Shown one piece after another: positions 1 through 49,164 of a stretch of 64,000 nucleotides of DNA. A model generated the notes under the pieces. It searched no databases. It was given only the letters and a program-made list of their open reading frames with translations, and was not told the DNA's origin. Source of the DNA: a virus. Position 1 is the stretch's first letter, and the number at the start of each line of letters is the position of its first letter. The DNA lies in the IMG/VR virus record IMGVR_UViG_2927124413_000004, positions 4,417-68,416 of that record; one strand, written 5' to 3'. The position numbers and the translations under genes are program-made.

Positions 1-185
1 CGCTCGAAATAAGTATATCCTTTCCTGACTTCTCGTAACTCCCGACGTTCTTCGAAATCGACAAAGCCCTCTTCGGATACTGCTGCCATGGGAAGAAACG
101 AGACCACGGCATCATCCGGCAGCGTCTTCGGCATGCGCGGGTTGATCTCGCAAATGTCATCAAGTCGAACGATCCGGGTGCTCAC
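1..185 (-). CDS. hsdS: Type I restriction-modification specificity subunit, N-terminal part (runs off window)
   Basis: Manual translation from GTG at 185, overlapping the hsdM stop: MSTRIVRLDDICEINPRMPKTLPDDAVVSFLPMAAVSEEG...EVRKGYTYFER. This is a typical HsdS start and lies directly after hsdM. Confidence 0.8.
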   Translation of the reverse strand, partial: MSTRIVRLDDICEINPRMPKTLPDDAVVSFLPMAAVSEEGFVDFEERRELREVRKGYTYFE

Positions 186-1723
186 AGCATGGCCTCAAGC
201 TCGTCCAGTCCTTCTGCGATCTCCTCCTCCAGCGCCTTCAATTCCGCGATGATCTTCTTCGGAGGACGATGCTCGGATGCCTCGTGCACCACTTCCTTGT
301 AACGGTTGATAGAGAGATCATACCCCGCCGCCGCAATCTCCGCCTTGGGCACGCAAAAACTTTGCGCCGTACGCGGACGTTCACGCTCGACGCCGCCGCG
401 CTTCGTCCAGCGCGCGGCAATGTCAGGCAGGTTGTTTTTCGCATGCTCGTCGTCGCTGAGCTTCGCCTTCGGGCCGATCTTTTCCGCCGGCAATAGCGCG
501 TTGCGCTTGTCGTCCAGCGAAAGCCCATCGGCCTGACAATCGTAGAACCAGACGTTGTCGGTGCCGCCGGAATTGGTCTTGGTGAACAGCACGATCGCGG
601 TCGAAACGCCGGCATAGGGCCGGAACACGCCGGACGGTAGCTTGACGATGCCGTCGAGCTTATGGTCCTCAACCAACATCCTGCGGATCGCCTTGTGGGC
701 GGTAGATGAGCCGAACAAGACGCCATCCGGAACGATCACCGCCGCGCGTCCGCCAGGCTTCAACAGCTTTAGGAACAGCGCCATGAACAGGAGCTCGGTC
801 TTTTTGGTCTTGACGATGGCAAGCAGATCCTTCGCCGTAGTCTCGTAATCGAGCGAGCCAGCAAACGGCGGATTGGCGAGCACGAGACTGTAGCGGTCTG
901 AATCGCCCGCATGTTCTTGTGCGAGCGAATCCTTGTAGCGGATGTCCGGATCGTCGACGCCGTGCAGCGTCATGTTCATCGAGCCGATGCGCAACATCGT
1001 GCCGTCGAAGTCGAAGCCGTGAAACATTTCCTCGTGAAAATGGCCGCGCGTTGCCTTCTCCTGAAAGAGCTTTGGATGATTGTCGCGCAGATATTCGCCG
1101 GCCGCGACCAGGAAGCCACAGGTGCCGCAGGCCGGATCGCAGATCACGTCCTTCGGGCCCGGCGCCGTCATCTCGACCATCAGCGCGATGATATGGCGCG
1201 GGGTGCGGAACTGGCCGTTCTGGCCCGCCGTCGCGATCTTCGACAGCATGTATTCATAGAGGTCGCCCTTGGTGTCGCGATCCTCCATCGGGATCTCGGC
1301 CAGCAGGTCGACCACCTTGGCCAGCAGCGCGGGCGTGGGAATGGTGAAGCGCGCCCCTCTCATATGCGTGGCGTGCGCGGTGCCGGCCTCGGCCATGTTG
1401 CGCAGGAAGGGAAAGACATGTTCGGAAACGATCTCGAACATCGTCGCGGGATCGCGGTTTTTCAACCGGGACCACCGCATGTCCTCGTAGGCGACGCCGC
1501 CGTTCTTCCCGATCTTGTCCTTGCCTGTCGGAAAAATGCGCCGTTCGATCGGCTTGCCGAGGCGGTTGGCTTTATTCTCCTCGCGCGTATGCGCCTCGTC
1601 GAGGCCGCGCATGAACAGGAGGTAGGTGATCTGCTCGATCACTTCGAGCGGGTTGGCAATGCCTCCCGCCCAGAACGCATTCCAAACCCCATCGATCTTG
1701 GAGCGAAGTTCCCCTGTCAGCAT
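182..1723 (-). CDS. hsdM: Type I restriction-modification N6-adenine methyltransferase subunit
   Basis: 513 aa. Starts MLTGELRSKIDGVWNAFW; has GQFRTPRHII, the DPACGTCGFL SAM motif and the NPPF catalytic motif. Confidence 0.96.
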   Translation of the reverse strand: MLTGELRSKIDGVWNAFWAGGIANPLEVIEQITYLLFMRGLDEAHTREENKANRLGKPIERRIFPTGKDKIGKNGGVAYEDMRWSRLKNRDPATMFEIVSEHVFPFLRNMAEAGTAHATHMRGARFTIPTPALLAKVVDLLAEIPMEDRDTKGDLYEYMLSKIATAGQNGQFRTPRHIIALMVEMTAPGPKDVICDPACGTCGFLVAAGEYLRDNHPKLFQEKATRGHFHEEMFHGFDFDGTMLRIGSMNMTLHGVDDPDIRYKDSLAQEHAGDSDRYSLVLANPPFAGSLDYETTAKDLLAIVKTKKTELLFMALFLKLLKPGGRAAVIVPDGVLFGSSTAHKAIRRMLVEDHKLDGIVKLPSGVFRPYAGVSTAIVLFTKTNSGGTDNVWFYDCQADGLSLDDKRNALLPAEKIGPKAKLSDDEHAKNNLPDIAARWTKRGGVERERPRTAQSFCVPKAEIAAAGYDLSINRYKEVVHEASEHRPPKKIIAELKALEEEIAEGLDELEAML

Positions 1724-4150: not shown

Positions 4151-4433
4151 CCCCGCGGGTCACTTCAAATTCCTCCGGGTGTGGTCAGTCAAATTCCTCC
4201 ACCCGCGAGGCAGGACAAGGGACTGTTAGTTTGAGTTTGTTTCCCGGGCAAGAGCTTCAGCGGCTTCTTTGAGCCGATAGCTGCGTCCGTCGAACTCAAG
4301 CAGATGGCAATGATGCATAAGTGTGTTTCGGCATGGAATAAGGACCCCGTTTTCGGGGTGATCGGCATCCAATCGGGACCCCGGGATAAGGGTCCACAGT
4401 GGCTTCCATCGAGTCATGGAAGCCGAGGTTGGG

Positions 4434-5933
4434 ATGCTGGTGGTGGAGACGATTGGTAAGATCCGTCGCGCCTACTTTGTTGATGGTCGTCCGATCAAGG
4501 CGATCTGCCGAGAACTTGGCGTATCGCGGAAGGTGGTTCGCAAGGTCATTCGTTCTCAAGCGACGGAGTTCCGGTACGAGCGCGAGACGCAGCCGCTCCC
4601 GAAGATGGGTGCCTGGAGTGCCGAGCTTGATCGGTTGCTGGCAGGGAATGAGAGCAAGGCGGCGCGGGAACGGCTGACGCTGATCCGGCTATTCGAGGAG
4701 CTTCGCGGCCTGGGTTATGCCGGCGGCTATGATGCGGTTCGTCGATACGCACGACGGTGGAGCAAGGAACGCGGCACCTCGACAGCGTCGGCTTATGTGC
4801 CGCTGAGCTTTGCACCCGGCGAAGCCTACCAGTTCGACTGGAGCCACGAGGTCGTCCTGCTGAGCGGCACCACGGTGATGGTGAAGGCTGCTCATGTCCG
4901 GCTCTGTCACAGCCGCATGCTGTTCGTGCGGGCCTATCCGCGGGAGACGCAGGAGATGGTGTTCGACGCCCACGACCGGGCATTCGCCTTGTTCAAAGGC
5001 ACCTGCACCCGCGGCATCTACGACAACATGAAGACCGCGGTGGAGACGATCTTTGTCGGTAAAGGCCGTCTCTACAATCGCCGCTTCCTGCAGATGTGCA
5101 GCCACTATCTGGTCGATCCGGTCGCCTGTACGCCAGCGTCGGGCTGGGAGAAGGGGCAAGTCGAGAACCAGGTCGGGCTGGTCCGGGAACGCTTCTTCAC
5201 GCCGCGGCTGCGGTTCAAAACCCTCGACGAGTTAAACGCCTGGCTGCTCGACAAATGCATCGCCTACGCCAAGGCTCATCGCCATCCGGAGCTGACCGAT
5301 CAGACGATCTGGGACGTGTTCGAAGCCGAACGCCCCAAACTCGTTCCCTATGCCGGCCGCTTCGACGGCTTCCATGCGGTGACGGCATCGGTCTCGAAGA
5401 CCTGCCTGGTGCGCTTCGACAACAACAAGTACTCGGTCGCAGCCAGCGCAGTCGGACGACCGGTCGAGGTTCAAGCCTATGCCGATCGCATCGTGATCCG
5501 TCAGGATGGACGTATCGTTGCCGAGCACCCGCGATCATTCGGTCGCGGCGAGACGGTCTACGACCCTTGGCACTATGTGCCCGTGCTGGTGCGCAAGCCC
5601 GGTGCCTTGCGTAATGGCGCTCCCTTCAAGGACTGGGTGCTGCCCGCAGCGATTGAGCGTGTACGGCGCAAACTCGCCGGTGCCGACGATGGCAATCGAC
5701 AGATGGTCGACATCCTCAATGCGGTGCTGACAGACGGATTGCCCGCGGTGGAAGCCGCCTGCGCCGAGGCGGTCGCTCATGGCGTTCATTCCGCCGATGT
5801 CGTTCTCAATATCCTGGCCCGTCAACGTGAACCCGCCTCACCGGCCAACATCATGACGCCGGCCGCACTGACGCTCCGTCATGCACCGATCGCCGATTGT
5901 GCCCGCTACGACAACCTCCGGAGGACCATCTGA
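4434..5933 (+). CDS. istA: IS21 transposase IstA
   Basis: N-terminal HTH; [13 protein letters not shown] and [11 protein letters not shown] motifs. Confidence 0.96.
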
Positions 5934-6796
5934 TGGAACGAACCCAAATCTTCGACCTCATGGGCGAACTCAAGCTCTACGGCATGAAGGCTGCCTTCGA
6001 CGAGATCATGGCAACTGCCGTTAAGCGCCAGCACGAACCTCAGCGCATTGTCGGCGACCTGCTCAACGCCGAGATCAACGAGAAGCAAGCCAGGTCGATC
6101 AAATACCAGCTAACCATTGCCAAGCTGCCGCTCGCCAAGGACATCGCCGACTTCCAGTTCGACGGCACGCCGATCAATCAGACTCTCGTCAATGATCTCG
6201 CTGACGGCGGCTTCATCGCCCAACAACGCAACGTCGTGCTGGTTGGCGGCACCGGTACAGGCAAAACACACCTGGCCATTGCCGTCGCCAGAAGTTGCAT
6301 CCGCAATGGCGCTAGAGGACGCTTCTACAACGTCGTCGACCTCGTCAACCGGCTCGAGACCGAAACCCGCAACGGTCGGCAGGGACGGCTCGCCGAGCAT
6401 CTGACCCGCATGGACTTCATCGTCCTCGACGAGCTGGGCTATCTGCCGTTCGCGCAATCCGGCGGTCAGCTCTTGTTCCATCTCATCAGTCGGCTCTACG
6501 AGCGCACCTCAGTCATTGTCACCACAAATCTTGCGTTCGGCGAATGGCCGAGCGTGTTCGGCGATGCCAAAATGACCACCGCGCTACTCGACCGATTGAC
6601 CCATCACTGCGACATCGTCGAGACCGGCAACGACAGCTGGCGATTCAAAAGCCGCGACGATGTTCAAACAACCCGCGCTCGCGCCGTCTCCGCAACCCCG
6701 ACCAGCTCCGACGACCCGAGCGCTACCAGCAGAGCACGCCGATCAAAGGGGTCCCTTTTGGAGGCCGATAGGGGGTCCCAGTCAAACGCCGATTGA
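5933..6796 (+). CDS. istB: IS21 helper ATPase IstB
   Basis: GGTGTGKT Walker A, IVLDELGY Walker B, LLDRLTHH. Confidence 0.96.
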
Positions 6797-30095: not shown

Positions 30096-30746
30096 GAATC
30101 GCATGTAGTGGTACAGCAGCTGCTCGACGGTGTTGCCAGCGACGCCGAGCGCGCCACTACCGGCGCCGCTCTTGGCGGCCGCGGCGGTGACGTCGAAGAA
30201 TTGCACGCGGCTTTCACGGTGTGAGATCGACCGGATCCCGCTCGTCAGCTGCTGCGCGACTTGCGTGCGCGCGGCGCCGACCATGACTGCCAGCGCCTGC
30301 TTCAAGGCCGGCGGGGCTTCGTCGGGCAAATGGTAACCGCCGGAATAGATGACGCGGATCGGCTCCGACCACGGGCCGCCGAAGAATTGCAGTTTGCCGC
30401 TGCGGTTCTCGAGCTCGTAACTGTCCGGATCAATCAGCGCATCGCTCGGCGACGTCACGGTCAGGATGTCTTCATCCTTCACCGGATAATGCGTCAAAAA
30501 GATTCGCCCGTTCTGGGTGTCGAACGGCGGCAGGTCACCGCGCCAGGTTTCCTGCACCTTCTCGTAGGCAAACACCCGATTGCACATCGTGGCGATGACG
30601 TCGGAATACTGCGAGATCCAGAGCTGGAGCATGGCATCGTCGGTGGTGTTGGCCGGATCGATGCCGAGCATCACCTTGAGCTCGTTGAGCGTCGCAAGAT
30701 CGTAGCTCTCGGCCGGCTCCAGCACCTTGACTGTGATGTCGGCCAT
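30087..30746 (-). CDS. Head-tail connector (gp6-like)
   Basis: LATLNELKVML...I..MCNR..., YSGGY..P.EAPPALKQA. Confidence 0.75.
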   Translation of the reverse strand: MADITVKVLEPAESYDLATLNELKVMLGIDPANTTDDAMLQLWISQYSDVIATMCNRVFAYEKVQETWRGDLPPFDTQNGRIFLTHYPVKDEDILTVTSPSDALIDPDSYELENRSGKLQFFGGPWSEPIRVIYSGGYHLPDEAPPALKQALAVMVGAARTQVAQQLTSGIRSISHRESRVQFFDVTAAAAKSGAGSGALGVAGNTVEQLLYHYMRFYV

Positions 30747-32179
30747 CAGCGCGTCTCGATGTTGAATTGCTCGAAGATGCTGCGCAGCCGCAGCGGCTCG
30801 ATCTCGGTGCCGTCGGATAACACCAGCGTCACTGCATAGCCTTCGGGGTCGACCTTCCAGCCGGCGACGGTCAGGCCTGGTAGCCCGCGCTCGCCGCGCG
30901 CGCCCGGATCACCCTTCGGCCCCGGCTTACCAGGACGGCCAGCAGATGCGATCAGCTGCCAGCCGTCCCCAGGGCAAGGACCGGGAGCATCGTGCCGTGC
31001 CATGAAACTCGAACCGTTCAGCGCGACGATGTTGAAGGCGGCATAGCTCTCGCCATCGCGATAGGTGCCGCGCACCACCGGAGTCGTGGCATCGCGTCCG
31101 CACATGGCCAAAGGCATCCAGTCGCGGTGCGGCGGTTTCTGCGCGGTATCTTTCTTCGCTTGCCAGGTGCCGCCATCGCAGAACACCACATCGCCGTGAT
31201 AGGACACGTCGTCTTCGCTCCAGGCGCGGACGATCGGCAGCGCGCCGGTTTCGCCCTTCTCGCCGCGCTGGCCTATCGGCCCCGGCTCGCCCTGCGGACC
31301 GGGCTCTCCCTTTTCACCGGGCTTCCCTTGCTCGCCGCGAGGGCCTTGCTGCCCTGGCTCGCCTTTGTCGCCTTTTTCCCCTTGCTCACCTTGTTCGCCT
31401 TGTTCGCCATGTTCGCCTCGCTCTCCTGGTTCGCCCCGCTCGCCCTTCCCGCCCTGCGGTCCGGGTTCACCCCGCTCACCGGGTTCACCTGGTTCGCCCT
31501 GGGGCCCTGGTTCGCCGCGGTCACCGATCTTGCCCGGCTCTCCCGGCTCACCTGCCGGCCCCTGCTCGCCACGCTCACCGGGCTCGCCAACGACACCGGG
31601 AATGCCTTGCTCGCCTTGCTCGCCGGCAGGCCCCGGCTCGCCGCGCTCACCTGCCGGCCCCTGCTCGCCACGCTCACCGGGCTCGCCAACGAAACCGGGA
31701 ATGCCTTGCTCGCCATGCTCGCCGGCAGGCCCCGGCTCGCCGCGCTCACCCGCCGGCCCCTGCTCGCCACGCTCACCGGGCTCGCCAACGACACCGGGAA
31801 TGCCTTGCTCGCCATGCTCACCGGCAGGCCCCGGCTCGCCGCGCTCACCTGCCGGCCCCGGATCACCCTTCTCGCCGACGGCCCCGATCGGCCCAGGCTC
31901 ACCGTCCTTGAGCTCACCAAGCCGGACGCGGACCATCTCCGAAAGCTCGGCACGGCAAGCGACCACCTCGGCCCGCAATCCCGCGATCACCACCTCGGTT
32001 TTCGCGATCGTGGCCTGGGTCTGCGCCGTCATCAGCTCGCGATCGCGCTTCCATTGCTTGCGCTCATCAGCCAGCGCGCGGCCCAGCACCTCGCGCCAGG
32101 CGTCGAGCAGCGTCTCACTCGCTTCCGATTCGATCGGCGGCTCTAAAAAGGTTTCGGACTTCCCGTTGTAGTTCATCAC
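30746..32179 (-). CDS. Collagen-like virion protein
   Basis: Long acidic GXY tract between an N-terminal coiled coil and a C-terminal globular part. Confidence 0.8.
31555..31860. repeat. Three tandem 99-bp (33-aa) repeats inside the collagen-like gene
   Basis: Unit [14 protein letters not shown](H/Q)GEQGIPG(V/F)[10 protein letters not shown], three copies; ends approximate. Confidence 0.85.
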
Positions 32180-34475: not shown

Positions 34476-36734
34476 TTACCAGAGGACGCCCTGAACCCAG
34501 GCCACCACACCGGCCCGGCGCAGGGTCCAGTTGATCGGCAGGATCAGCCGCAGCGCCATGCTGTCGGTCTGCCACATCGACTTGACCGGAGTGGCCGGCG
34601 TGCCCGGCGCCGCCCCGCTGATGATGTCAGCCGGCGCGGTGTCTTCCATATGCAGCGTGGCCTGGTCCGAGATCTCGAACCGTGGGCCCTCGCCGCCGAC
34701 GGTGACGAAGTCGGCGCAATCGACCGCGATCACTGTGCCCATCGGCACCGTACCGGAATCGATGATCGGCCAACCCTGCAGATTGCCGGCAGCAATCTGA
34801 GCCTGGAAGGGGAAGGCTCCCACACCAGGCGCTGCCGTCAGGCCAGCGCTCATGACCTGTTGCGGGTTCATCAGCCAGGCGGGGTTGCGGATATTGCCCA
34901 TCGTTGCGGTGAGCAATGCGCCCGCCACCTGCTTGATGTCGCCGACCAGGGCATCAAAGCGTGAGCCTCCGGCCGGTATCGGTGTCGGCGTCAACGCCGC
35001 CACGCCGTTGAGAATGCCCGCCGGCCGGATCTGGGTCGCCGGGTTGGTGTCGAGCAACACGCTGTCAAGCGAGACCGCGGTGTCCTCCTGGATCGCATTG
35101 CGGAGCAAGCCCTCGATGGCGGGCACGCTGTGCTCATCAATCTCGCGGGTCCAGGTGGTGATGACCGCCATCTTCTTCGGGGTCAGGGTCGCCGCCGTGA
35201 ATGCACCCTGCCGCACCGGGATCGGCATGCCTTCACCGACGAACGAGCCGGCGATGGTCGGCGTGCGCGAGCGGGTCGGAATGACGATGCGGCCGTTGCG
35301 ACCGAAGGTCAGTCCGAGGCCTCGGGCCGACAGCCGCGGATAGACGGCCTTGGCCTGCAGCAGCTCCATGAAGTCAGCGTTGATCTGCTGCACCAGCTCC
35401 GCCGCCCAGCCGGTGACCGTGGTCTTGGCCGGCGCGGTGGCGGCCTTGACGGCCCAGTCCAGTACCGCCTTGGTCATCTCGTCTTCGCCGTAGATCATGC
35501 GCCGAACCTGATCGATCGGTTCGTGGCGGAGGTGCGAGAACATCTGCACGGTGCCGGCGCGGACCAACAGGTCGAGCGGATCGAGCTTCTTCTTCGGCAT
35601 GTTGAACGGCCGCCGGCTGGTCGGCGGGTCGTCGTCGTTCGTCTTGATGACGTGGTTGTGGATGACGGTGGTGCGGCCGTCGCTGCTGCCTTCCGCCATG
35701 TTGGCCTCGGATTCGCGCAGCGTGGTGAGCGTCTTGTTCTCCTGCGCGATCTTGGCGTTGAGGTCAGTGGCCGTGGCAAGCTGTGCGTCGCTGACATTGG
35801 TGTCGTCGACACTGGCGAAATGCTCGGCCAGCTGGTCGCGGAGATCGACTAACCGCTTCTCCGAATCTTGAATACGTTTGGAAAATTGCTGAGCAAGCGA
35901 CATCGTCGTGCCCTTCCGTTCCGCAGATGATCGTTTGGCTTGCCCGCCGTTGAACCCGCGTCGCTGGATGCCGTCTTTTGCGCCTTGCCCGGCGAAGACG
36001 AGATCGATGGTTGCGGGAGAACTCTTCAGTGACTTGGCCACCGCCAACGCATTGGGGTTGGCCGGCACGGCGACCAGCGAGGTCTCCACCAGTTCGCTCT
36101 TGGTGAAGATCTGACCGCCGAATCCATATTCGTCGTTGGCATTGCGCGACTGCCGCTCGATCGGCCGGAAACCGACCGAGACCGCGCACAGGATGCCCTG
36201 CTCGACCAAGCTCAGGATCTCATCGATCCGCGCCGAGGTGCCCTTCCTGGCGAGCTCGAGGTGGCCGCGCAGCGCGCGATCCTTGACGCGCAGATTTTTC
36301 CATTTGCCGATCGGGAAATCGCTCTTGTGGTTGAACAGCGCGACCGGGTTCTTCTTGAAATTCTCCAGATCCCAACCGTCCGACCTGACGATGTCGTCCA
36401 TGCGGTCCGGCGTCTCATCGGACAGCACGAACTCCATGCCGCTGACGGTCTCGGCGTGAGTCTTGTGCACGACGCCATCGACGGCGCGGTTTTCCCAGAT
36501 CAGCTCGCAGGCGTCCTCATCGCCGAGCTCGTCAACGCAACGGTCGATGAAGTCCGCGCGGCTCTCATCTTCTTCCGGCTCGAGCTGCTTTGCGGACTTG
36601 TCCTTGTTGCGCCAGATGTTGAGGCAGGCAGCGACCGCCTGGTCGTTCTCGCGCTTGCCGTCGCCCATCATGTCGGGGACGCACCTGGACATGAACTCGC
36701 TCTGGCTTTCGCCTTTGTGCGGCTTCATCGGCAT
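34476..36734 (-). CDS. Fused prohead protease (U35/S78) and HK97-fold major capsid protein
   Basis: DRMDDIV...F.KNPV.LFNH...PIG, LCAVSVGF..., ELVETSLVAVPANPNA, followed by a capsid domain (FVGEG..IP, LTPKKM). Confidence 0.93.
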   Translation of the reverse strand: MPMKPHKGESQSEFMSRCVPDMMGDGKRENDQAVAACLNIWRNKDKSAKQLEPEEDESRADFIDRCVDELGDEDACELIWENRAVDGVVHKTHAETVSGMEFVLSDETPDRMDDIVRSDGWDLENFKKNPVALFNHKSDFPIGKWKNLRVKDRALRGHLELARKGTSARIDEILSLVEQGILCAVSVGFRPIERQSRNANDEYGFGGQIFTKSELVETSLVAVPANPNALAVAKSLKSSPATIDLVFAGQGAKDGIQRRGFNGGQAKRSSAERKGTTMSLAQQFSKRIQDSEKRLVDLRDQLAEHFASVDDTNVSDAQLATATDLNAKIAQENKTLTTLRESEANMAEGSSDGRTTVIHNHVIKTNDDDPPTSRRPFNMPKKKLDPLDLLVRAGTVQMFSHLRHEPIDQVRRMIYGEDEMTKAVLDWAVKAATAPAKTTVTGWAAELVQQINADFMELLQAKAVYPRLSARGLGLTFGRNGRIVIPTRSRTPTIAGSFVGEGMPIPVRQGAFTAATLTPKKMAVITTWTREIDEHSVPAIEGLLRNAIQEDTAVSLDSVLLDTNPATQIRPAGILNGVAALTPTPIPAGGSRFDALVGDIKQVAGALLTATMGNIRNPAWLMNPQQVMSAGLTAAPGVGAFPFQAQIAAGNLQGWPIIDSGTVPMGTVIAVDCADFVTVGGEGPRFEISDQATLHMEDTAPADIISGAAPGTPATPVKSMWQTDSMALRLILPINWTLRRAGVVAWVQGVLW

Positions 36735-36797: not shown

Positions 36798-36995
36798 TTA
36801 CGGCGTCGGCTTCTTACGTAGCGCCTTGGCCTTGACCTGGTGGCGCCTCCGATGCTTCGCTCGGATCGGCGCCATGATCTTCTCGTCGATCGGATAGTCG
36901 ACCGGGTTCAGAATCGCGTTGTGCAGCTCGGCATCCTGCTTGCTGCCGTCGTCATCGGTGTAGAAGAATTCGTTGGCCTCGCGCTTCGGCATCAT
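36798..36995 (-). CDS. Small hypothetical protein (possible cognate inhibitor of the upstream domain)
   Basis: ATGA overlap with the 1076-aa ORF stop. Confidence 0.55.
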   Translation of the reverse strand: MMPKREANEFFYTDDDGSKQDAELHNAILNPVDYPIDEKIMAPIRAKHRRRHQVKAKALRKKPTP

Positions 36996-39900
36996 TTGGC
37001 CTTTCCGACGTAGGCCTTGAACCGCGCCATCGATTCCCGGTCTTTCAGGTTGAGCACGCCGGCCCAGCTCGAATTGAGCAACATCTCCTTGCCGCGCGGA
37101 TGATCGGCGACCTTCCAGATCGATTTCGGATCGCTGGAGTGGATCGCCTGCAGCAGCTCATCTTCCTCGCGCTCCGGCAGCTCCAGCTGTGGCTCTTCAT
37201 CCTCGTCACGCTCGATCTCGATGTCGGCCATGCCGTAGCGGATTGCCTCGCGCAGTTTCTCGTCGTCGTCTTTCTGGTCCCAGTATTCCTCCTGGTACTC
37301 GCTGATGCTGTCGGCCAGGTACTCCGGCGGGTCCATCCGATCGGCCTTGTCCTCGGCCTCTTTGTTGAAGGCGTCGATCAACTCCTTTTGGATCTCGTCG
37401 CGGGCGTCCGCGCTCAGCATCTCGCTCGGTGTCAGCGGCTCGATCCCTGGCAAGGTCTGCTGCGCCGGGTCGTAGCCGGCCGGCGTCATGCGATCGAGCT
37501 CGTCGTCCATGAACTCGATCGACGGATCCTTGGTGCCGTCCCAGCCGCGCTCGTAATCGATCTTGATGGCGCCCAGGATCTCATCGTCGCTGAACGGGAT
37601 GTCCGGTTCGCCCTCGGCAATGCGGTTCTCGCGCCACTCCGCCACCGCGTTCTTGGCCCAGTCGTCCGACGGCCCGACGAAACTGTCGGCAAGCTCGCCC
37701 TTGGCGTCATCGAGCGCTTGGCCGCTCTCGCGCCAGTTCTGCTCCTCGCTGGAGAGAAATTCGCTGTAGCTGTCGTTCATCCAGCGCCGCTTCACGGCGT
37801 CTTGCATGTCCTCACCGAGCATCGACCAATCATCGGCCTCGTAGGTGTCGGTGCCACGGGATGGCGCGCCTCTGCCACCCAGCTTGCGCTCGAGCTCGCC
37901 GCGCAGCTCCGCCCATGACGAGGCTGTCGGCACATAACCGTATTTCGCCCAGGCATAACCGCCGACATCGATGTTGGCGCTGACCTTGAGCTTCTCGAGG
38001 CCGAGCGCCTCGTAAACCTCGACATTGCCGCCGAGCACCTTCTTGCCGATGTTGTGCTTGGTGGTGTTTTTGTTCAGCTTGAAGAAAGCCGAATAGGCGG
38101 ACTTATCGTCCGGCGAGATCTGGCGGTCGTACTCGCCGACGCGGTTGCCGCTGTCATCCAGGATGCCGCCGCCGATGTAGAACGTCGAACCCGACAGGCC
38201 GATGTTCATGGTGGCGTGTTCGAGGCCGCCGAGGAAACTTTTCTTGAACTCCTCCGGCTCGATGCCGATTTTCGCATTCCACTTTTCGACGAACGCCGCT
38301 TCCTCGCTGCTGGTGGCGTTGATCTTGATCTTGGCCTTGTCGAAATCGTCTTTCCTGGCCGGCTTCTTGCTTTTCTTCGGCTTGGCCTCCGCCGCCGGCT
38401 TGTCGGCCGCTGACGTCGCCGAGGATCCACCGCCACCGCCGGAAGTGAATTGTCCACCGGTCGACGTGCCGGCGGGATCGCGTGGATGCTGACTTTCGTC
38501 CCAGCGCTGATGGAATCTATGCTTGAGCAGCTGGAAGCGCTGGGCGTTTAGCTTTTCTTGAGCACCAGCTCGCCGTTGATCTCCTCGAAGTGGCTCCAGT
38601 CCTGCAGCTCTTCCGGCAGCTCCATCTCGAGCTCCGCCGTCCACTCCGGCCGTGGGTTGCCCCAGGCCATGTCGATGTAGCTCTCGCGCGTCACCGGGAC
38701 GCCGGCCTTTTTCATCATCTCGATAACTTCGTCGCTCATGCTTCAATCCTGCCAGCTCGGCGATCGTGGCTTGCGTCTGCCCGAGCGTTACGTTTGCGTC
38801 GTCATGGTACGCGCGCCAGGCGTCCTCGACCGCAGCGGCTTGTTTCTTGCTCAGATTGCCGAATGCTTCCCGTTTAACCACCCAGACCGCTGATTGCAAT
38901 TGCCGCGGCTGGATCCCGAGCTCCTTTGCCGCTTCACGGTAAGCATCGGCATAGACCGGATACAGCCCGCTCGAGCCGGTCTTGATCGAACTGCCGGCGG
39001 CTTCCCAGCCTTCCGGCTTGTCGGCCTTATCGGGCGTCAGGCCGAAATTGTGCAGTACCGGCACCGTCTTGTTGGAGAGCGGCCGCAGCAGCGCGGCGCC
39101 GACGGCGTGGGTGTCGATGGTGACGTCGCCATTGGCGGAATGCGGATCCAGAATATTGTTGTAGAATGAGCGCACCTTATGCGCGGTGCCCATCGCGGCT
39201 GAGATCTGCGCGGTGTCGCCGTTGGCCTCGAGCGCCTTCACCGCATTGGTGATCGAAGCCAACGATTGCCAGACCACCTTGGCGTTGCTGCCGTCCTTGT
39301 TCTTGACGATCGGACCGAGCGCGCCGTTCGGCAGCACGGTGCGGTAGATGGTCGAATTGTGGGTCTCATCGTAGGTCCGGATCCACAGCGCCTTCTCCGC
39401 CGGGCTGGTCAGTTCGCCGAGCGTCTTGCCGCGCACCAGGTCGACCACCGCCTGGTTCTTGTCGGACCACAGCGTCTTGGATTTCTCCTCCATCTTATCG
39501 TCCCAGCGGTGACCCTGCTGCTGCTTGTAAGTCTTCAGCAGCATGTCAGCGATGTGGACGTTCTGATCCCAGTCCTTGGTCGGCGACAGCGCAGCGTAGA
39601 CGCCCGCGATTGAGGCGTCGTTGAAGCCGTAGAGCTCGGCGCGGTCATCGACCAGGGCGCGGGCGCCGTCGTACCAGATCTCGGTGTGGTGGTCCGCGAA
39701 GCCGTAGAGGAATTTCAAATTTTCCTTCAGGTGGTCGACCACCGCGCGAGTCGCATCGTCGGTCGAGCCCTTCAGCTCTTGCGGCCGGAAGTTCGGGTAG
39801 AAATCGGTGTTCTTGAACAGGTTGATGTCATGCTCGTAGCGCTTCGGGTCGAGCTTCATCGAGGCGACGTCGGGCTGCCCGTAGGCGAGCGGCTTGTCCT

Positions 39901-40222
39901 TCGCGGTCGGCTGCCTCGAGCCGATCGTATTCGGATGCTGGCCCTTATTGCCAGGAAGCGGCTTCACGCCGGCGGCCTTGGCCTGCTCGCTGGCGGCGGC
40001 GACATTGGCGTGGGTCTTGGCTTCGACCTTGGCGGTATCGATCGCAGTCCCGGTGCCTCCGCCGTCCGACCCACCGGTATCTACCCAGCGACCGTGCTCG
40101 TCCCTGGGCTGACTGGGATCGAACTTCAGGTAAAGCTCGCCCAACAGCGCCAGCCCGCGCGTATACTGCCGCTGCCACCGATCACGCCGCAGCTCCGCCT
40201 GCTGTCGCTCAATGATCGACAT
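36992..40222 (-). CDS. 1076-aa multidomain head-region protein: HhH-glycosylase-like domain plus GNAT-like domain
   Basis: KFDPSQPRDEHGRW and RWDESQHPRDPAG..GGQFT motifs; WY..A, AALSP..W..N, KVRSFYNN, VTIDTHA, QLQSAVW; IGKKVL...Y..LG...V.ANIDVGGYAWAKYGY. Confidence 0.7.
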   Translation of the reverse strand: MSIIERQQAELRRDRWQRQYTRGLALLGELYLKFDPSQPRDEHGRWVDTGGSDGGGTGTAIDTAKVEAKTHANVAAASEQAKAAGVKPLPGNKGQHPNTIGSRQPTAKDKPLAYGQPDVASMKLDPKRYEHDINLFKNTDFYPNFRPQELKGSTDDATRAVVDHLKENLKFLYGFADHHTEIWYDGARALVDDRAELYGFNDASIAGVYAALSPTKDWDQNVHIADMLLKTYKQQQGHRWDDKMEEKSKTLWSDKNQAVVDLVRGKTLGELTSPAEKALWIRTYDETHNSTIYRTVLPNGALGPIVKNKDGSNAKVVWQSLASITNAVKALEANGDTAQISAAMGTAHKVRSFYNNILDPHSANGDVTIDTHAVGAALLRPLSNKTVPVLHNFGLTPDKADKPEGWEAAGSSIKTGSSGLYPVYADAYREAAKELGIQPRQLQSAVWVVKREAFGNLSKKQAAAVEDAWRAYHDDANVTLGQTQATIAELAGLKHERRSYRDDEKGRRPGDARELHRHGLGQPTAGVDGGARDGAAGRAAGLEPLRGDQRRAGAQEKLNAQRFQLLKHRFHQRWDESQHPRDPAGTSTGGQFTSGGGGGSSATSAADKPAAEAKPKKSKKPARKDDFDKAKIKINATSSEEAAFVEKWNAKIGIEPEEFKKSFLGGLEHATMNIGLSGSTFYIGGGILDDSGNRVGEYDRQISPDDKSAYSAFFKLNKNTTKHNIGKKVLGGNVEVYEALGLEKLKVSANIDVGGYAWAKYGYVPTASSWAELRGELERKLGGRGAPSRGTDTYEADDWSMLGEDMQDAVKRRWMNDSYSEFLSSEEQNWRESGQALDDAKGELADSFVGPSDDWAKNAVAEWRENRIAEGEPDIPFSDDEILGAIKIDYERGWDGTKDPSIEFMDDELDRMTPAGYDPAQQTLPGIEPLTPSEMLSADARDEIQKELIDAFNKEAEDKADRMDPPEYLADSISEYQEEYWDQKDDDEKLREAIRYGMADIEIERDEDEEPQLELPEREEDELLQAIHSSDPKSIWKVADHPRGKEMLLNSSWAGVLNLKDRESMARFKAYVGKAK
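38548..38739 (-). CDS. 63-aa acidic protein overprinted inside the 1076-aa ORF
   Basis: AGGA RBS 7 nt upstream; protein-like sequence, whereas the overlapping frame reads as Arg/Gly-rich shadow sequence. Confidence 0.7.
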   Translation of the reverse strand: MSDEVIEMMKKAGVPVTRESYIDMAWGNPRPEWTAELEMELPEELQDWSHFEEINGELVLKKS

Positions 40223-44942: not shown

Positions 44943-47900
44943 CTATCGTAAGCGGCGCCTAATCCTCGCTGCCGTATCTTCTCGGGTCGCTTGGTGATCG
45001 TAGGTTTTGGCTATCACCATCAAAAGCTGCGATGAGACGAACGGATGCGAAGTCTGAAGGGCCAATCCCCACTTGCGATACTTTTCCGCCAGATTACGCT
45101 CTTGGTCGCCGCCTTCGCCGCGCCCGTGAACGCCTCGTGAGTTGTACACGCCAGTATGGGCACCCCGCATCATAGCCTCGGACTGAATGTCCTCCATCAC
45201 ATCGCGCACCGGCTCACACGGCCACACGCCGTCCTTCCCGGTCGGCGCGCCAGACAGCACCTTGCCGACACAGTTATCGGCAATGTCTGCTCGGTCTAGC
45301 TCGGCGCACGATTGGCGTACAGTCGCGAGCCACTTCGCAAGACGTTCAGTCTCCAGTTCCCCAAGGTCGTTGTGACCCGGAATCCTCTCTATGGCTTCGA
45401 GCAACTTGTAGCCGCGCTCAGCCATCGTTGTGACGCGCTCCGGCGGGACTTGGAATTCGGCCGGGTCATTGGCGCCGTCCTTGCGCTTGTACGTCCACGC
45501 GATCGCCTGAACAAAAAGCTCGGGGTGCAATTCGACGTACCGCTCCAGATTAGGGATCCCATAGTGGTTCCGCCTATCCCAACGACGTGCGAGCACCTCG
45601 ATGTAGGCGAACTCAAGACCCGCCTTTTCGTCCATCGTGAGCACGTGGCTACTGTTCAAGTGCTTGAAGCCCTCTTCAATGCTGTGGTGATCGAGCATGT
45701 AGTGACCGGGCTGCTCTTCGCCGCCCAGCGCCATCGCGGACAGCAAATTGAACAGAACCTGCGCGTCAAGCTTGCTGGGTTCATGCCGGATGCACGAAAA
45801 CGCCGCGCGGGGCCGTTTGGCCTTCAACAACCGCTCGACGCTTTCATTGTTCTCTGCATCCGAATTGCGAATCCAATCCGGCGTGACATCGCTCCAATAC
45901 CTGGCATGGGCCACTTCGCTAAGCGCGTCTACCAGCTGCCAGATCCTCTTGCCATACGGCGCAAGAACAAACAGCCGGACGATTTCTTGTTCGGACAATC
46001 CCGCCGCGACGCCACGGAGAACCGCTTCAAGCTTCTCGCTATTTCCTATGAAGCTGTGCAGTGCGCCGCCGATAAGATTCCTGTAGGCGTGAACCTCTTC
46101 CCTGCCTGCGAGGACCGAATCGAGGGCAAGCCGGAGCAATTCTCGAAGTTCTTGCTCGCTCAGCACGAGGGTAGCTAGTATCACTCCGATCATCCATGAT
46201 GCTTTTCCCCGCTTGGAAAGCTCCAGAATCCCGGCAAACCCCCGCTGCTCTATGACTTCGCGTAACGCCTCGGCTCTCAAGCTCTTGATTCGCTCTTCAC
46301 GAGCGTTGTAGTCGTATCTTTCGACATCCTCGATCTCGTCGGCGGATTCTTCGATCCAAGTGTCACGGAAGAGCCACGCATGCTTGTTTAGAAGGTCAAT
46401 CGGCTCGAGCGCCCTATAAGCGGTCTTGCCCGCTGTTGCGAAGCTTGTCGGTTTGCCGCCCTTCTTCGCGCGAACCGCAGCACGCCGCGATAACGTGGCA
46501 ACCCGAATTTTTTCGCGCATTGCGGCCTTATCGCCATCGCTAGCCTTATTCTTTGCCCAATCTTCGATCAAGGTCCAAACGCGGTTCTGATCGGCCTCGA
46601 TGAGACTCTGAAGACGGTCCACCAAGTCGCACAGCATGCTGAGCGAATGGTCTCGCCAGGTGAGAGCCATTTCGATCATCTCACGAACGAACTCGTCAAT
46701 CGGTCCCCGCGTCGAGAATGGTTCGCCGAACCCATATCCGTCGGCACGCCAGCGCGGTTTGTGGCTGTAATCGCCTACTCCGCTATGCGTGCTGAATTGC
46801 GATACGCAAATTTTCCAAGCTACGTCCGGAAATTTTTGCGCCAGCTTCTGCATCAACTCCACCCGCTCTCGATGGCTTGCAGCTGTCTGCGGCATCCAGG
46901 CTCGGAAGATTGATTCCAAAGAGTGCGTCGGCTTGTTGACCCAATTATCGTTGATCTCGACCTGTGCGAGGCGGGCCAGGATGGCGGCGGCGCGCGGCAA
47001 CGTTACCGGGTTCCACGAAAGGCCCTCCAATGCCCACAGGAGACCCGTGCGACTCGGGCTACGCCCGAATACACCTGCATCCGCCGGACGTAGAAGGCCG
47101 AAAACTGCAGGTTCTTTGGACCTGAGATCGCGCTCGATGATCGAAAGGAATTCGTTAGGCGCTGCTTCCGCGTAGGTCGGAAGATCTCTGTCGTGGGCCT
47201 CCAATATCCGCGTGGTCAACGGCGTCGGGAGCAAATCACGCACAACGCGCATCGCCTCAAATTCGGTATCAACGCCGAGATGGCGCTTGAACAAGTTCTC
47301 GCCATGCACAGCCAGCAAGACCAGGGTTTCCGAGATGCCTTCGCGGAAAGCGGCGGAAAATTCGCGCGTCTTTCCATGGAGCGACGCTGCCCAGCGCTGA
47401 TCGTCGTCTAGATCGAGCGCGGGGTCGTCTTCGCCGAGCACCATTCGTGCGATAGCGAAATAGAGGCTTAGGTGTTCAGGCGTCACCGCGCCAGCGATGG
47501 CGTATAGCAGATCAATTTTCGATATCACACCTCTGTAGTGGCCAAGGGACCACATCGGCGCATCGTTCAGCCGAGTAAGGCTCTGACACTCCTTCTCAAG
47601 ATCGTCATAAAGCCTGTCTCCGGCGAGGAGCGATAGACCTAGCTTGTCTGTCTCGTTCTGGCTATTCCACGCACCCACGAAAAGGAAGGGCACGAGGCTC
47701 GCTGCTGTCGGACGGTCCGCCGCCCATTCTGGTGTCCGCACCGCAGGCACCGTCGAAAGTTGACGGCGCAAAACGGTAAGCGACCGGCCGGAAGCGTTCG
47801 TCAGCCGCGAGATCTCATCGCGGTCCTTGCCCATCGCTTCGAGCGCCTTGTTGAAAGTGTCGTAGTTCGCAGGTTCGAGAACAATGTCGGCTTCGGTGGT

Positions 47901-49073
47901 CGCCGCATTGCGCGGGTAAACAACAACGGAGTGCATCGAATTCGCATAGGGGGCGAGTTCGCGCTCGACCTCTCGCGTGAACACGACCGGTATGAAGGTC
48001 TGCGCGCCTGCTGCCAAGCGCGGCAGGACGCCAGGCTTGTCGAACACGAGAACGCTATCTCGGTACGAGGCCAGTTCTTCGCCACCGCGTTCGCCAAGCA
48101 GTTGGGCGAGAAAGGCAAGCGCCTCTTCCGTCGAGTCCGCCGCGACCAAGGTTGGCCGGTCAGCGGGATTCGCCAGGCGCGAGAGCATTGTGCGTTTGGT
48201 CGCCTCGATGGCCGAGCTGAACAGCGCGCCCGTCAAGGGCGGTCTCGAGGCGTCGGCCCAGTCAGCCCAGCACTTGTCTAGCGAACGAACGTGCTGCGCG
48301 GGTATGCCCGCTTCATTGGCGAACCACGCTTGTCCGGGCAGAGACTGCTCCAGCCATTGCTCAAGATCGCTAGCGTCGTATGCGCGAACGTCTTTCCAAA
48401 GTCCTTTTGCCTGTTTTGCTGCAACCCAATCAGCCTTCCCGGGCCAGCGGCGCGGTGTGACGAAAACGAACGTGATCTCCGTGCGCTCCTCCGCACTAAG
48501 GGCCTTAACGCTTTTCTCAAAGTCGCCTTCGGCCTTCGCCTTGGGATTCTCGTTGGTGCCAAATTCCCAGCCGGAGGATCCAGCAGGGACCCAGGGCGTC
48601 CCGTCGCTCGCTTCCGCGATTCCGTCCCATCCAGGACGTTCGGCATCGTCGTTGCCGGGAAAGTCCACCTTAGTCAGCCCACTGCCGGTCGAGTGGACCA
48701 GCGTACGTAAAAAAACTGCCAACCGGCTCCGCGCGGGGATGTTGTGCGCAACCCAACCTTCGATGTCATTGGCCTTGATAGCCAGAAAGGGCGGTACGTA
48801 TGCCTTGGTTTCAGTCGGCGGGTCTATGTGCTTCGCTTGCGCCTCTTCGTACCTCGCTTGCATCGCCATCAGGTCGTTGCGAGGGTAATTGAATGCTTTT
48901 TCTAGGCGCGCTGCCATGTCAGCGGACAAAGCGGCTTTGCCGTTGAGCAGATTCGACAACGCCGGGCGGCCCACACCCATCAACTGGGCGGCTTTCGTGA
49001 CTGACATACCAGGGGGAATAACGTCAGATTTGATGCGGGCTCCCGGATGAGCAGCATCTGCGCGAGCGTCCAT
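44943..49073 (-). CDS. 1376-aa putative anti-phage protein: HigA-type HTH, PD-(D/E)xK-like nuclease, degenerate STAND-like region, helical sensor
   Basis: HPG.RI...MSVT.AA..MGV.R..LS.LLNGKA.LSADMA.RL (HigA antidote HTH); FPG.D...PGWDG...WEFGT...K.KA..D..K; TFVFVTPRRW; VRAYDA.DLEQWL. No canonical Walker A seen. Confidence 0.7.
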   Translation of the reverse strand: MDARADAAHPGARIKSDVIPPGMSVTKAAQLMGVGRPALSNLLNGKAALSADMAARLEKAFNYPRNDLMAMQARYEEAQAKHIDPPTETKAYVPPFLAIKANDIEGWVAHNIPARSRLAVFLRTLVHSTGSGLTKVDFPGNDDAERPGWDGIAEASDGTPWVPAGSSGWEFGTNENPKAKAEGDFEKSVKALSAEERTEITFVFVTPRRWPGKADWVAAKQAKGLWKDVRAYDASDLEQWLEQSLPGQAWFANEAGIPAQHVRSLDKCWADWADASRPPLTGALFSSAIEATKRTMLSRLANPADRPTLVAADSTEEALAFLAQLLGERGGEELASYRDSVLVFDKPGVLPRLAAGAQTFIPVVFTREVERELAPYANSMHSVVVYPRNAATTEADIVLEPANYDTFNKALEAMGKDRDEISRLTNASGRSLTVLRRQLSTVPAVRTPEWAADRPTAASLVPFLFVGAWNSQNETDKLGLSLLAGDRLYDDLEKECQSLTRLNDAPMWSLGHYRGVISKIDLLYAIAGAVTPEHLSLYFAIARMVLGEDDPALDLDDDQRWAASLHGKTREFSAAFREGISETLVLLAVHGENLFKRHLGVDTEFEAMRVVRDLLPTPLTTRILEAHDRDLPTYAEAAPNEFLSIIERDLRSKEPAVFGLLRPADAGVFGRSPSRTGLLWALEGLSWNPVTLPRAAAILARLAQVEINDNWVNKPTHSLESIFRAWMPQTAASHRERVELMQKLAQKFPDVAWKICVSQFSTHSGVGDYSHKPRWRADGYGFGEPFSTRGPIDEFVREMIEMALTWRDHSLSMLCDLVDRLQSLIEADQNRVWTLIEDWAKNKASDGDKAAMREKIRVATLSRRAAVRAKKGGKPTSFATAGKTAYRALEPIDLLNKHAWLFRDTWIEESADEIEDVERYDYNAREERIKSLRAEALREVIEQRGFAGILELSKRGKASWMIGVILATLVLSEQELRELLRLALDSVLAGREEVHAYRNLIGGALHSFIGNSEKLEAVLRGVAAGLSEQEIVRLFVLAPYGKRIWQLVDALSEVAHARYWSDVTPDWIRNSDAENNESVERLLKAKRPRAAFSCIRHEPSKLDAQVLFNLLSAMALGGEEQPGHYMLDHHSIEEGFKHLNSSHVLTMDEKAGLEFAYIEVLARRWDRRNHYGIPNLERYVELHPELFVQAIAWTYKRKDGANDPAEFQVPPERVTTMAERGYKLLEAIERIPGHNDLGELETERLAKWLATVRQSCAELDRADIADNCVGKVLSGAPTGKDGVWPCEPVRDVMEDIQSEAMMRGAHTGVYNSRGVHGRGEGGDQERNLAEKYRKWGLALQTSHPFVSSQLLMVIAKTYDHQATREDTAARIRRRLR

Positions 49074-49164
49074 AAGCAATTCCTCTCAAAGGCGGCCTAG
49101 AATCGGCCGACCGCATCGTGTCGCGCTACACAATACAATCCGCACAGTTGCCTGAAGGAGAGAA

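Follow-up and report, generated by a model that had tools for sequence, protein, structure and literature searches.

The window, a 64-kb stretch of viral DNA, is included in a 71.6-kb provirus with close relatives inside Bradyrhizobium genomes; near versions of this prophage are carried by Bradyrhizobium elkanii WSM2783 and by Bradyrhizobium sp. BRP22 and SRL28. Its minus strand carries, in this order, genes for terminase, a GH25 endolysin and an HNH protein, a 156-aa gene, a giant ORF of 1076 aa, a 65-aa gene (T), a protease-capsid fusion gene and a portal-like gene. The giant ORF comprises an N-terminal domain A, a linker and a C-terminal module B. A further gene of 63 aa, here called S, is situated entirely within the giant ORF, the frame of which is −1 relative to S (Table 1). 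A scan for promoters and terminators returned signals at chance level only.

Table 1. Features of the giant ORF and its surroundings (window coordinates)
Feature	Position	Strand	Basis or remark
Giant 1076-aa ORF (A, shadow linker, B)	36992..40222	minus	Head-gene region, protease-capsid and portal genes downstream
F-D-x-x-x-P-R module motif, ahead of domain A	40085..40123	minus	
Domain A, aa 81-494, DUF7178, HhH-GPD glycosylase-like fold (predicted)	38741..39982	minus	Pfam, model, invariant residues
AGGA, putative ribosome-binding site of S, within the final codons of domain A	38747..38750	minus	Modest strength
Shadow linker of the giant (aa 495-558, the stretch covered by S), −1 frame of S	38549..38740	minus	Stop-free, without detectable amino-acid selection
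S, acidic 63-aa partner gene, ATG..TAA	38548..38739	minus	Homologues, pN/pS, AlphaFold, codon score
Sole in-frame GTG for B, inside S, Glu-Trp codon junction	38642..38644	minus	
Module B, aa 559-1076, GNAT-like cargo with acidic insert	36992..38548	minus	Free-standing or otherwise fused in relatives
Remnant of B N-terminal leader and W-D-x-x-x-H-P-R motif (W at 38503)	38480..38548	minus	Comparison with free-standing B
Gene T, 65 aa, ATGA overlap with the stop of the giant	36798..36995	minus	Homologues adjoin B modules in L076, L021

An earlier sequence-only reading of this DNA had pointed to a 63-aa gene nested between A and B in another frame, and S is almost certainly a real gene under selection. 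Seven close homologues share 60–81% identity with it, the gene is found at ∼70 loci, and the family amounts to 686 representatives (50% clustering). In its own frame S has a pN/pS of 0.39, indicative of purifying selection. The codon score over S is 0.60 in the S frame and −0.76 in the giant frame, with respective GC3 values of 0.90 and 0.33; outside S, codon use favours the giant frame. The protein is acidic (pI 4.3; 15 D/E and 6 K/R) and is predicted by AlphaFold to adopt a confident fold (pLDDT 92.7). Profile searches of Pfam and PHROG gave no match, and no fold match was found among solved structures (best Z 2.9); structure searches retrieved a single viral structural relative, and the Atlas search gave only a match at 0.80. 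In some close pairs of loci S diverges faster than A (66% versus 93% at L004). The AGGA claimed as ribosome-binding site is indeed present 7 nt ahead of the ATG of S (38750–38747), but its strength is modest: its anti-SD pairing energy of −5.5 kcal/mol compares with a median of −3.0 for background sites, and since a quarter of these reach −5.5 it is a plausible site rather than strong evidence. Where S is nested, gene callers overlook it; neither the exact S protein of the window locus nor those of three Bradyrhizobium genomes are present in the protein collection.

Over the same stretch the giant frame displays a pN/pS of 1.7, compared with 1.8 for an ordinary gene read out of frame, and hydrophobic residues make up 11% of the linker versus 27% of A. 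The description of this part of the giant as shadow sequence therefore holds, and the pN/pS lends no support to an amino-acid function of the linker. The two frames share DNA, as the term overprinting implies; however, S is the older coding frame, and the overprinted product is the linker of the giant, not S.

Domain A belongs to DUF7178, a family for which a literature search found no paper mentioning it. Comparison of A with the PDB by sequence yielded nothing significant, and Foldseek returned nothing at E≤0.001. Folded alone, A gave a model with a pLDDT of 96.9, which matched 3n0u, the 8-oxoG glycosylase of T. maritima (VIA Z 9.0, rmsd 3.9, 180 aligned), and the queuine salvage enzyme (Z 8.5); the top 22 rows of structure matches were all HhH-type glycosylases or queuine-salvage-type relatives. 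For a helical domain a Z of ∼9 represents a moderate match, which gives no substrate. K349 (codon from 39178) and D370 (codon from 39115), the latter in a DTH motif 21 residues further on, are invariant in 114 sequences and, judged by motif and spacing, correspond to the catalytic Lys of the hairpin and the Asp ∼18–21 residues later. Bifunctional HhH enzymes have an Asp-Lys dyad (PMC13490550), which the pair in A resembles in motif and spacing. A is predicted to be a DNA-glycosylase/AP-lyase-like domain. It shares fold and Lys/Asp pair with OGG, AGOG, EndoIII and Dag1/Dag2, of which Dag1 is an HhH defence enzyme able to attack modified-guanine phage DNA (bioRxiv 10.1101/2025.10.29.685425), but differs from all of these in its size (∼410 aa with insertions), in identity (≤12%), in being phage-borne and in being paired with S.

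For module B, a GNAT relationship is only a lead (Atlas 0.91; Acetyltransf_1 on 20% of members). Its homologues are mostly encoded by free-standing genes of 520–540 aa with a leader of 25–30 residues that ends in the [WF]D..HPR..G.[FW] motif; the B of the window retains the second half of this leader and has lost the Met. Homologues of gene T also head other modules (P0292, P0367), and T is a probable partner of B. These ORFs appear to follow a grammar in which a module is succeeded by a small partner and then by the next module. This motif stands before every module, in relatives as often as four times in one ORF, and is a candidate packaging or protease signal. In addition, the protease-capsid protein (window 34476–36734, minus strand) carries a short repeated N-terminal segment, M..CV...AVAAC..W, which also stands ahead of cargo modules (L001, L038, L076) and is a candidate head-targeting element.

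The exact 1076-aa protein is present on seven public contigs, the longest of 10.9 Mb, and the giant layout recurs in three Bradyrhizobium genomes and in many phage contigs. The sequence-only reading had considered that raw reads might reveal an in-frame stop and a start for B. In contigs from four sequencing runs, of which X16 and X17 may be where this DNA came from and X18 and X19 are additional samples of two of the same studies, S and both of its junctions show no base change or indel, and one X17 contig covers positions 37178–38896 without any difference, which rules out an assembly error at the S junctions. Run X16 has an inserted C at ∼38209; a variant of 688 aa in public data (P0399) and a remainder of 405 aa (P0278) are consistent with a frameshift in B, so B is either dispensable or mis-sequenced there.

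In order to see how A and S are arranged in relatives, non-redundant loci were compared. In 78 of 79 loci S adjoins A, and in the remaining one it is found ∼1.1 kb further on; among the loci found by A alone, the two are adjacent in 54 of 55. The stop of A falls at or before S in 28 loci and inside S in five; A reads through S and stops soon after in 15, and in 26 it reads on for at least 50 aa or to the contig end (>200 aa in 19 of these). A and S are convergent in three loci (L015, L030, L046), 90–310 nt apart, and in one (L078:3001–4665; P0076, a cluster of three) they form an in-frame fusion upstream of an SU10-type portal gene. The expectation that A, the small gene and B would be separate in relatives is borne out: at five loci (L007, L009, L010, L012, L019) A terminates at a stop of its own and overlaps S by ATGA, and B occurs free-standing. 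In the cultured phage LS06-2018-MD07 a distant A nests a weak S-like ORF.

What follows in the frame of A varies within the clade of the window and may be a B-type module, an ART-domain ORF or the protease-capsid gene; ART-PolyVal is also found among the cargo. L003 was counted for the junction only because its downstream cargo, which becomes carboxyltransferase-like, may be a chimera. In L080 (775–6591), L081 and L082, A, the S-shadow and a whole protease-capsid protein constitute one ORF of up to 1938 aa, in which the capsid keeps its own ATG; possibly the capsid protein also exists with this N-terminal extension, by which it would load cargo. In loci of a distant clade, the frame of A ends 11–27 codons past S, and in 13 of 15 loci the stop abuts the start of the next gene, an internal virion protein of phrog_6651. 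In L111 a member of this family is joined in frame behind the linker; coupling and fusion are thus two outcomes of the passage over S. S is the only small gene recurrently nested in multi-module ORFs.

To evaluate whether the giant frame is kept open, S was recoded synonymously using the codon use of each locus. Where the frame of A enters the S core, it is stop-free in 44 of 45 loci versus 12.3 expected, compared with 10 of 28 versus 6.0 expected in control loci in which A has already stopped (Fisher p 4e-9, ignoring shared ancestry). For the window locus alone the probability of an open −1 frame is ∼0.29, within chance; the evidence for maintenance comes from the relatives. In L115, L126 and L135 the frame of A is open despite a GC content of 42–44% (P≤0.02 each). 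Nested S shows less synonymous divergence than the flanking A (0.41 versus 0.55; 0.57 versus 0.74), but in separated pairs the two values are equal (0.76 versus 0.76). On the A tree the open or closed state takes six changes, at least three of which are forced by well-supported branches. Within the clade of the window, ten of the 12 long-enough rows are nested; the two separated loci (L007, L010) lie inside the clade, and therefore the nested state can also revert. It thus appears that the relatives maintain an open giant frame over S and, therefore, that this DNA probably gives rise to both proteins. The sequence-only reading had seen here a fossil gene boundary. An old boundary it does appear to be, rather than an accident or an assembly error, because of the stop avoidance, the recurrent switching and the existence of free-standing B with a leader; but it is neither a one-off nor decaying, since it is kept up and has arisen at several places on the A tree.

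As a whole, the data are probably best explained by an A-linker-B polyprotein and by S being produced from a nested internal gene. A is normally followed by a small partner gene, S, whose start lies on the final codons of A or just within them. In the lineage of the window the −1 frame of A continues over S, and B, devoid of a start, is joined behind S in the frame of A, so that one stretch of mRNA would yield the 1076-aa polyprotein and, from an internal ribosome-binding site, S. That the giant is translated through S, as proposed earlier in the form of a read-through fusion that kept the nested gene, is likely in view of the stop avoidance. Judging from gene context, in which A neighbours or is fused with protease-capsid and phrog_6651 genes, the giant protein may be packaged in the head and injected, as a protein of the polyvalent type. 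A would then damage DNA, be it that of the host or the modified bases of a competitor, whereas S would bind and inhibit A during phage production, and orphan copies of S would protect other cells. Nesting would let A join a polyprotein, or pass ribosomes to the next virion gene, with the adjacent partner kept.

The linkage to A, the acidity and the orphan copies make an inhibitor the likelier role for S. DNA-mimic inhibitors such as Ugi are acidic as well. The two cultured phages that carry A but no detected S (see below) speak against this model, as does the faster divergence of S in some close pairs. Within the same architecture, S could instead assist A as a positive subunit, acting as its cofactor, chaperone or specificity partner, which we regard as unlikely. 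The near-constant linkage and the in-frame A-S fusion would agree with such a role, as would ∼10 proteins in which cargo modules begin with S as N-terminal domain, since this would place S in the head together with A. However, A folds confidently alone and occurs without S: in phages CRP-738 and zth2-2, whose A is 35–36% identical with K and D intact, no S was detected in the whole genome. S is, moreover, acidic like the DNA mimics, and there are many orphan S genes with kilobases of unrelated DNA upstream (as judged from the flanking DNA), some of them beside defence or repair genes, namely those for ADP-ribosylglycohydrolase, HD-domain/EcoEI and Mrr (L062:1118–2056, L022:4230–4415, L028:756–974).

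It is less probable still that most B is produced separately from A, by initiation at the GTG at 38644 or through a −1 shift out of S, with the long fusion a minor by-product. B had been said to lack a start codon of its own, and there is none between the S stop and the B motif, but the in-frame GTG inside S qualifies the claim. An ATG or GTG occupies this codon in 13 of 13 close loci; S::B in-frame fusions, which a −1 shift from S would mimic, exist (P0166, P0345), and other relatives fuse S in frame ahead of other modules; the protease-capsid of L080–L082 retains its ATG. Yet the start-like codon follows from a conserved x-Trp junction, its SD value of −4.7 is at background level, and inspection of the S end disclosed no conserved slippery site. 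Furthermore, at 13 window-type loci (12 near kin) the frame is open upstream of the GTG too, with no stops against 13.2 expected there and 9.1 expected downstream of it, and A lacks a stop, so that any A carries B. A neutral accident or artefact, that is, a faulty assembly or the loss of a stop as the prophage decayed, over the often open −1 frame of a GC3-rich gene, would agree with the chance-level openness of the window locus alone and with the frameshifted variant of the giant, but is very improbable given the identical sequence in several assemblies, the layout common to three Bradyrhizobium genomes and many phage contigs, and the stop deficit relative to controls.

More tentatively, and falling short of an even chance, the polyprotein reading may be extended to a widespread group of virion-delivered DUF7178 glycosylase/lyase effectors with a new HhH inhibitor of 50–60 aa, repeatedly kept nested for cargo chaining or for coupling to the next virion gene, with orphan inhibitors in bacteria. 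The analysis also assigns DUF7178 a partner and a predicted activity; S, for its part, would inhibit the HhH class in a Ugi-like manner.

A literature search for nested immunity genes gave no match to the A-S system and no paper on the A-S pair. In architecture, the two-component spanins Rz/Rz1 are comparable: they occur embedded, overlapped or separated, and the nested gene is usually missed by callers (Kongari et al. 2018, PMC6139136). A and S are likewise same-strand, out-of-frame partners in all three states, but the proteins and their role are unrelated; S and the giant matched no spanin family, the i-spanin/o-spanin lipoprotein pattern was not found, and inspection of S revealed neither a lipobox cysteine nor a signal peptide. 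In addition, no spanin family was found to combine the embedded with other architectures, and stop loss was only envisaged as a route (Kongari et al. 2018), whereas all states are seen within the A-S family and its host frame goes on to encode further domains. It is rare for a gene nested on the same strand to have both frames maintained, and how such pairs originate is debated. Since the A-S family includes all the intermediates (separate, overlapped, read-through, fully nested and fused) and has switched among them repeatedly, the loss of a stop over a downstream gene, as proposed for spanins, becomes testable.

MuF polymorphic toxins are encoded in the head-packaging region of temperate phages and are followed by an immunity ORF of <150 aa (Jamet et al. 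2017, PMC5576092). A similarly lies in a head region, an enzyme-like domain with a small ORF at once behind it (at 78 of 79 loci), and orphan copies of this small gene exist; A is, however, internal and S nested, and MuF1 (PF04233) is absent from the giant and from prophage G000. Polyvalent proteins are large phage ORFs that join disparate enzymes and are likely packaged in the capsid (Iyer et al. 2017, PMC5512222). The giant family also joins disparate enzyme domains near packaging genes (GNAT, ART-PolyVal and Nudix in relatives); the portions of Iyer et al. consulted contain nothing on nested partner genes, and the text makes no mention of glycosylase.

Several other genes of the window deserve mention. 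A 1378-aa ORF of lower GC content with an N-terminal HTH-like segment (44943–49079, minus strand) adjoins the terminase genes and, by reading, looks like a defence-type cargo gene. After the portal-like gene, a collagen-like protein with Gly-X-Y repeats is encoded (30746–32179, minus strand). By reading, the left end of the window holds a type I restriction methylase-like ORF (182–1723, minus strand) and an IS21-like transposase pair (4416–6796, plus strand).
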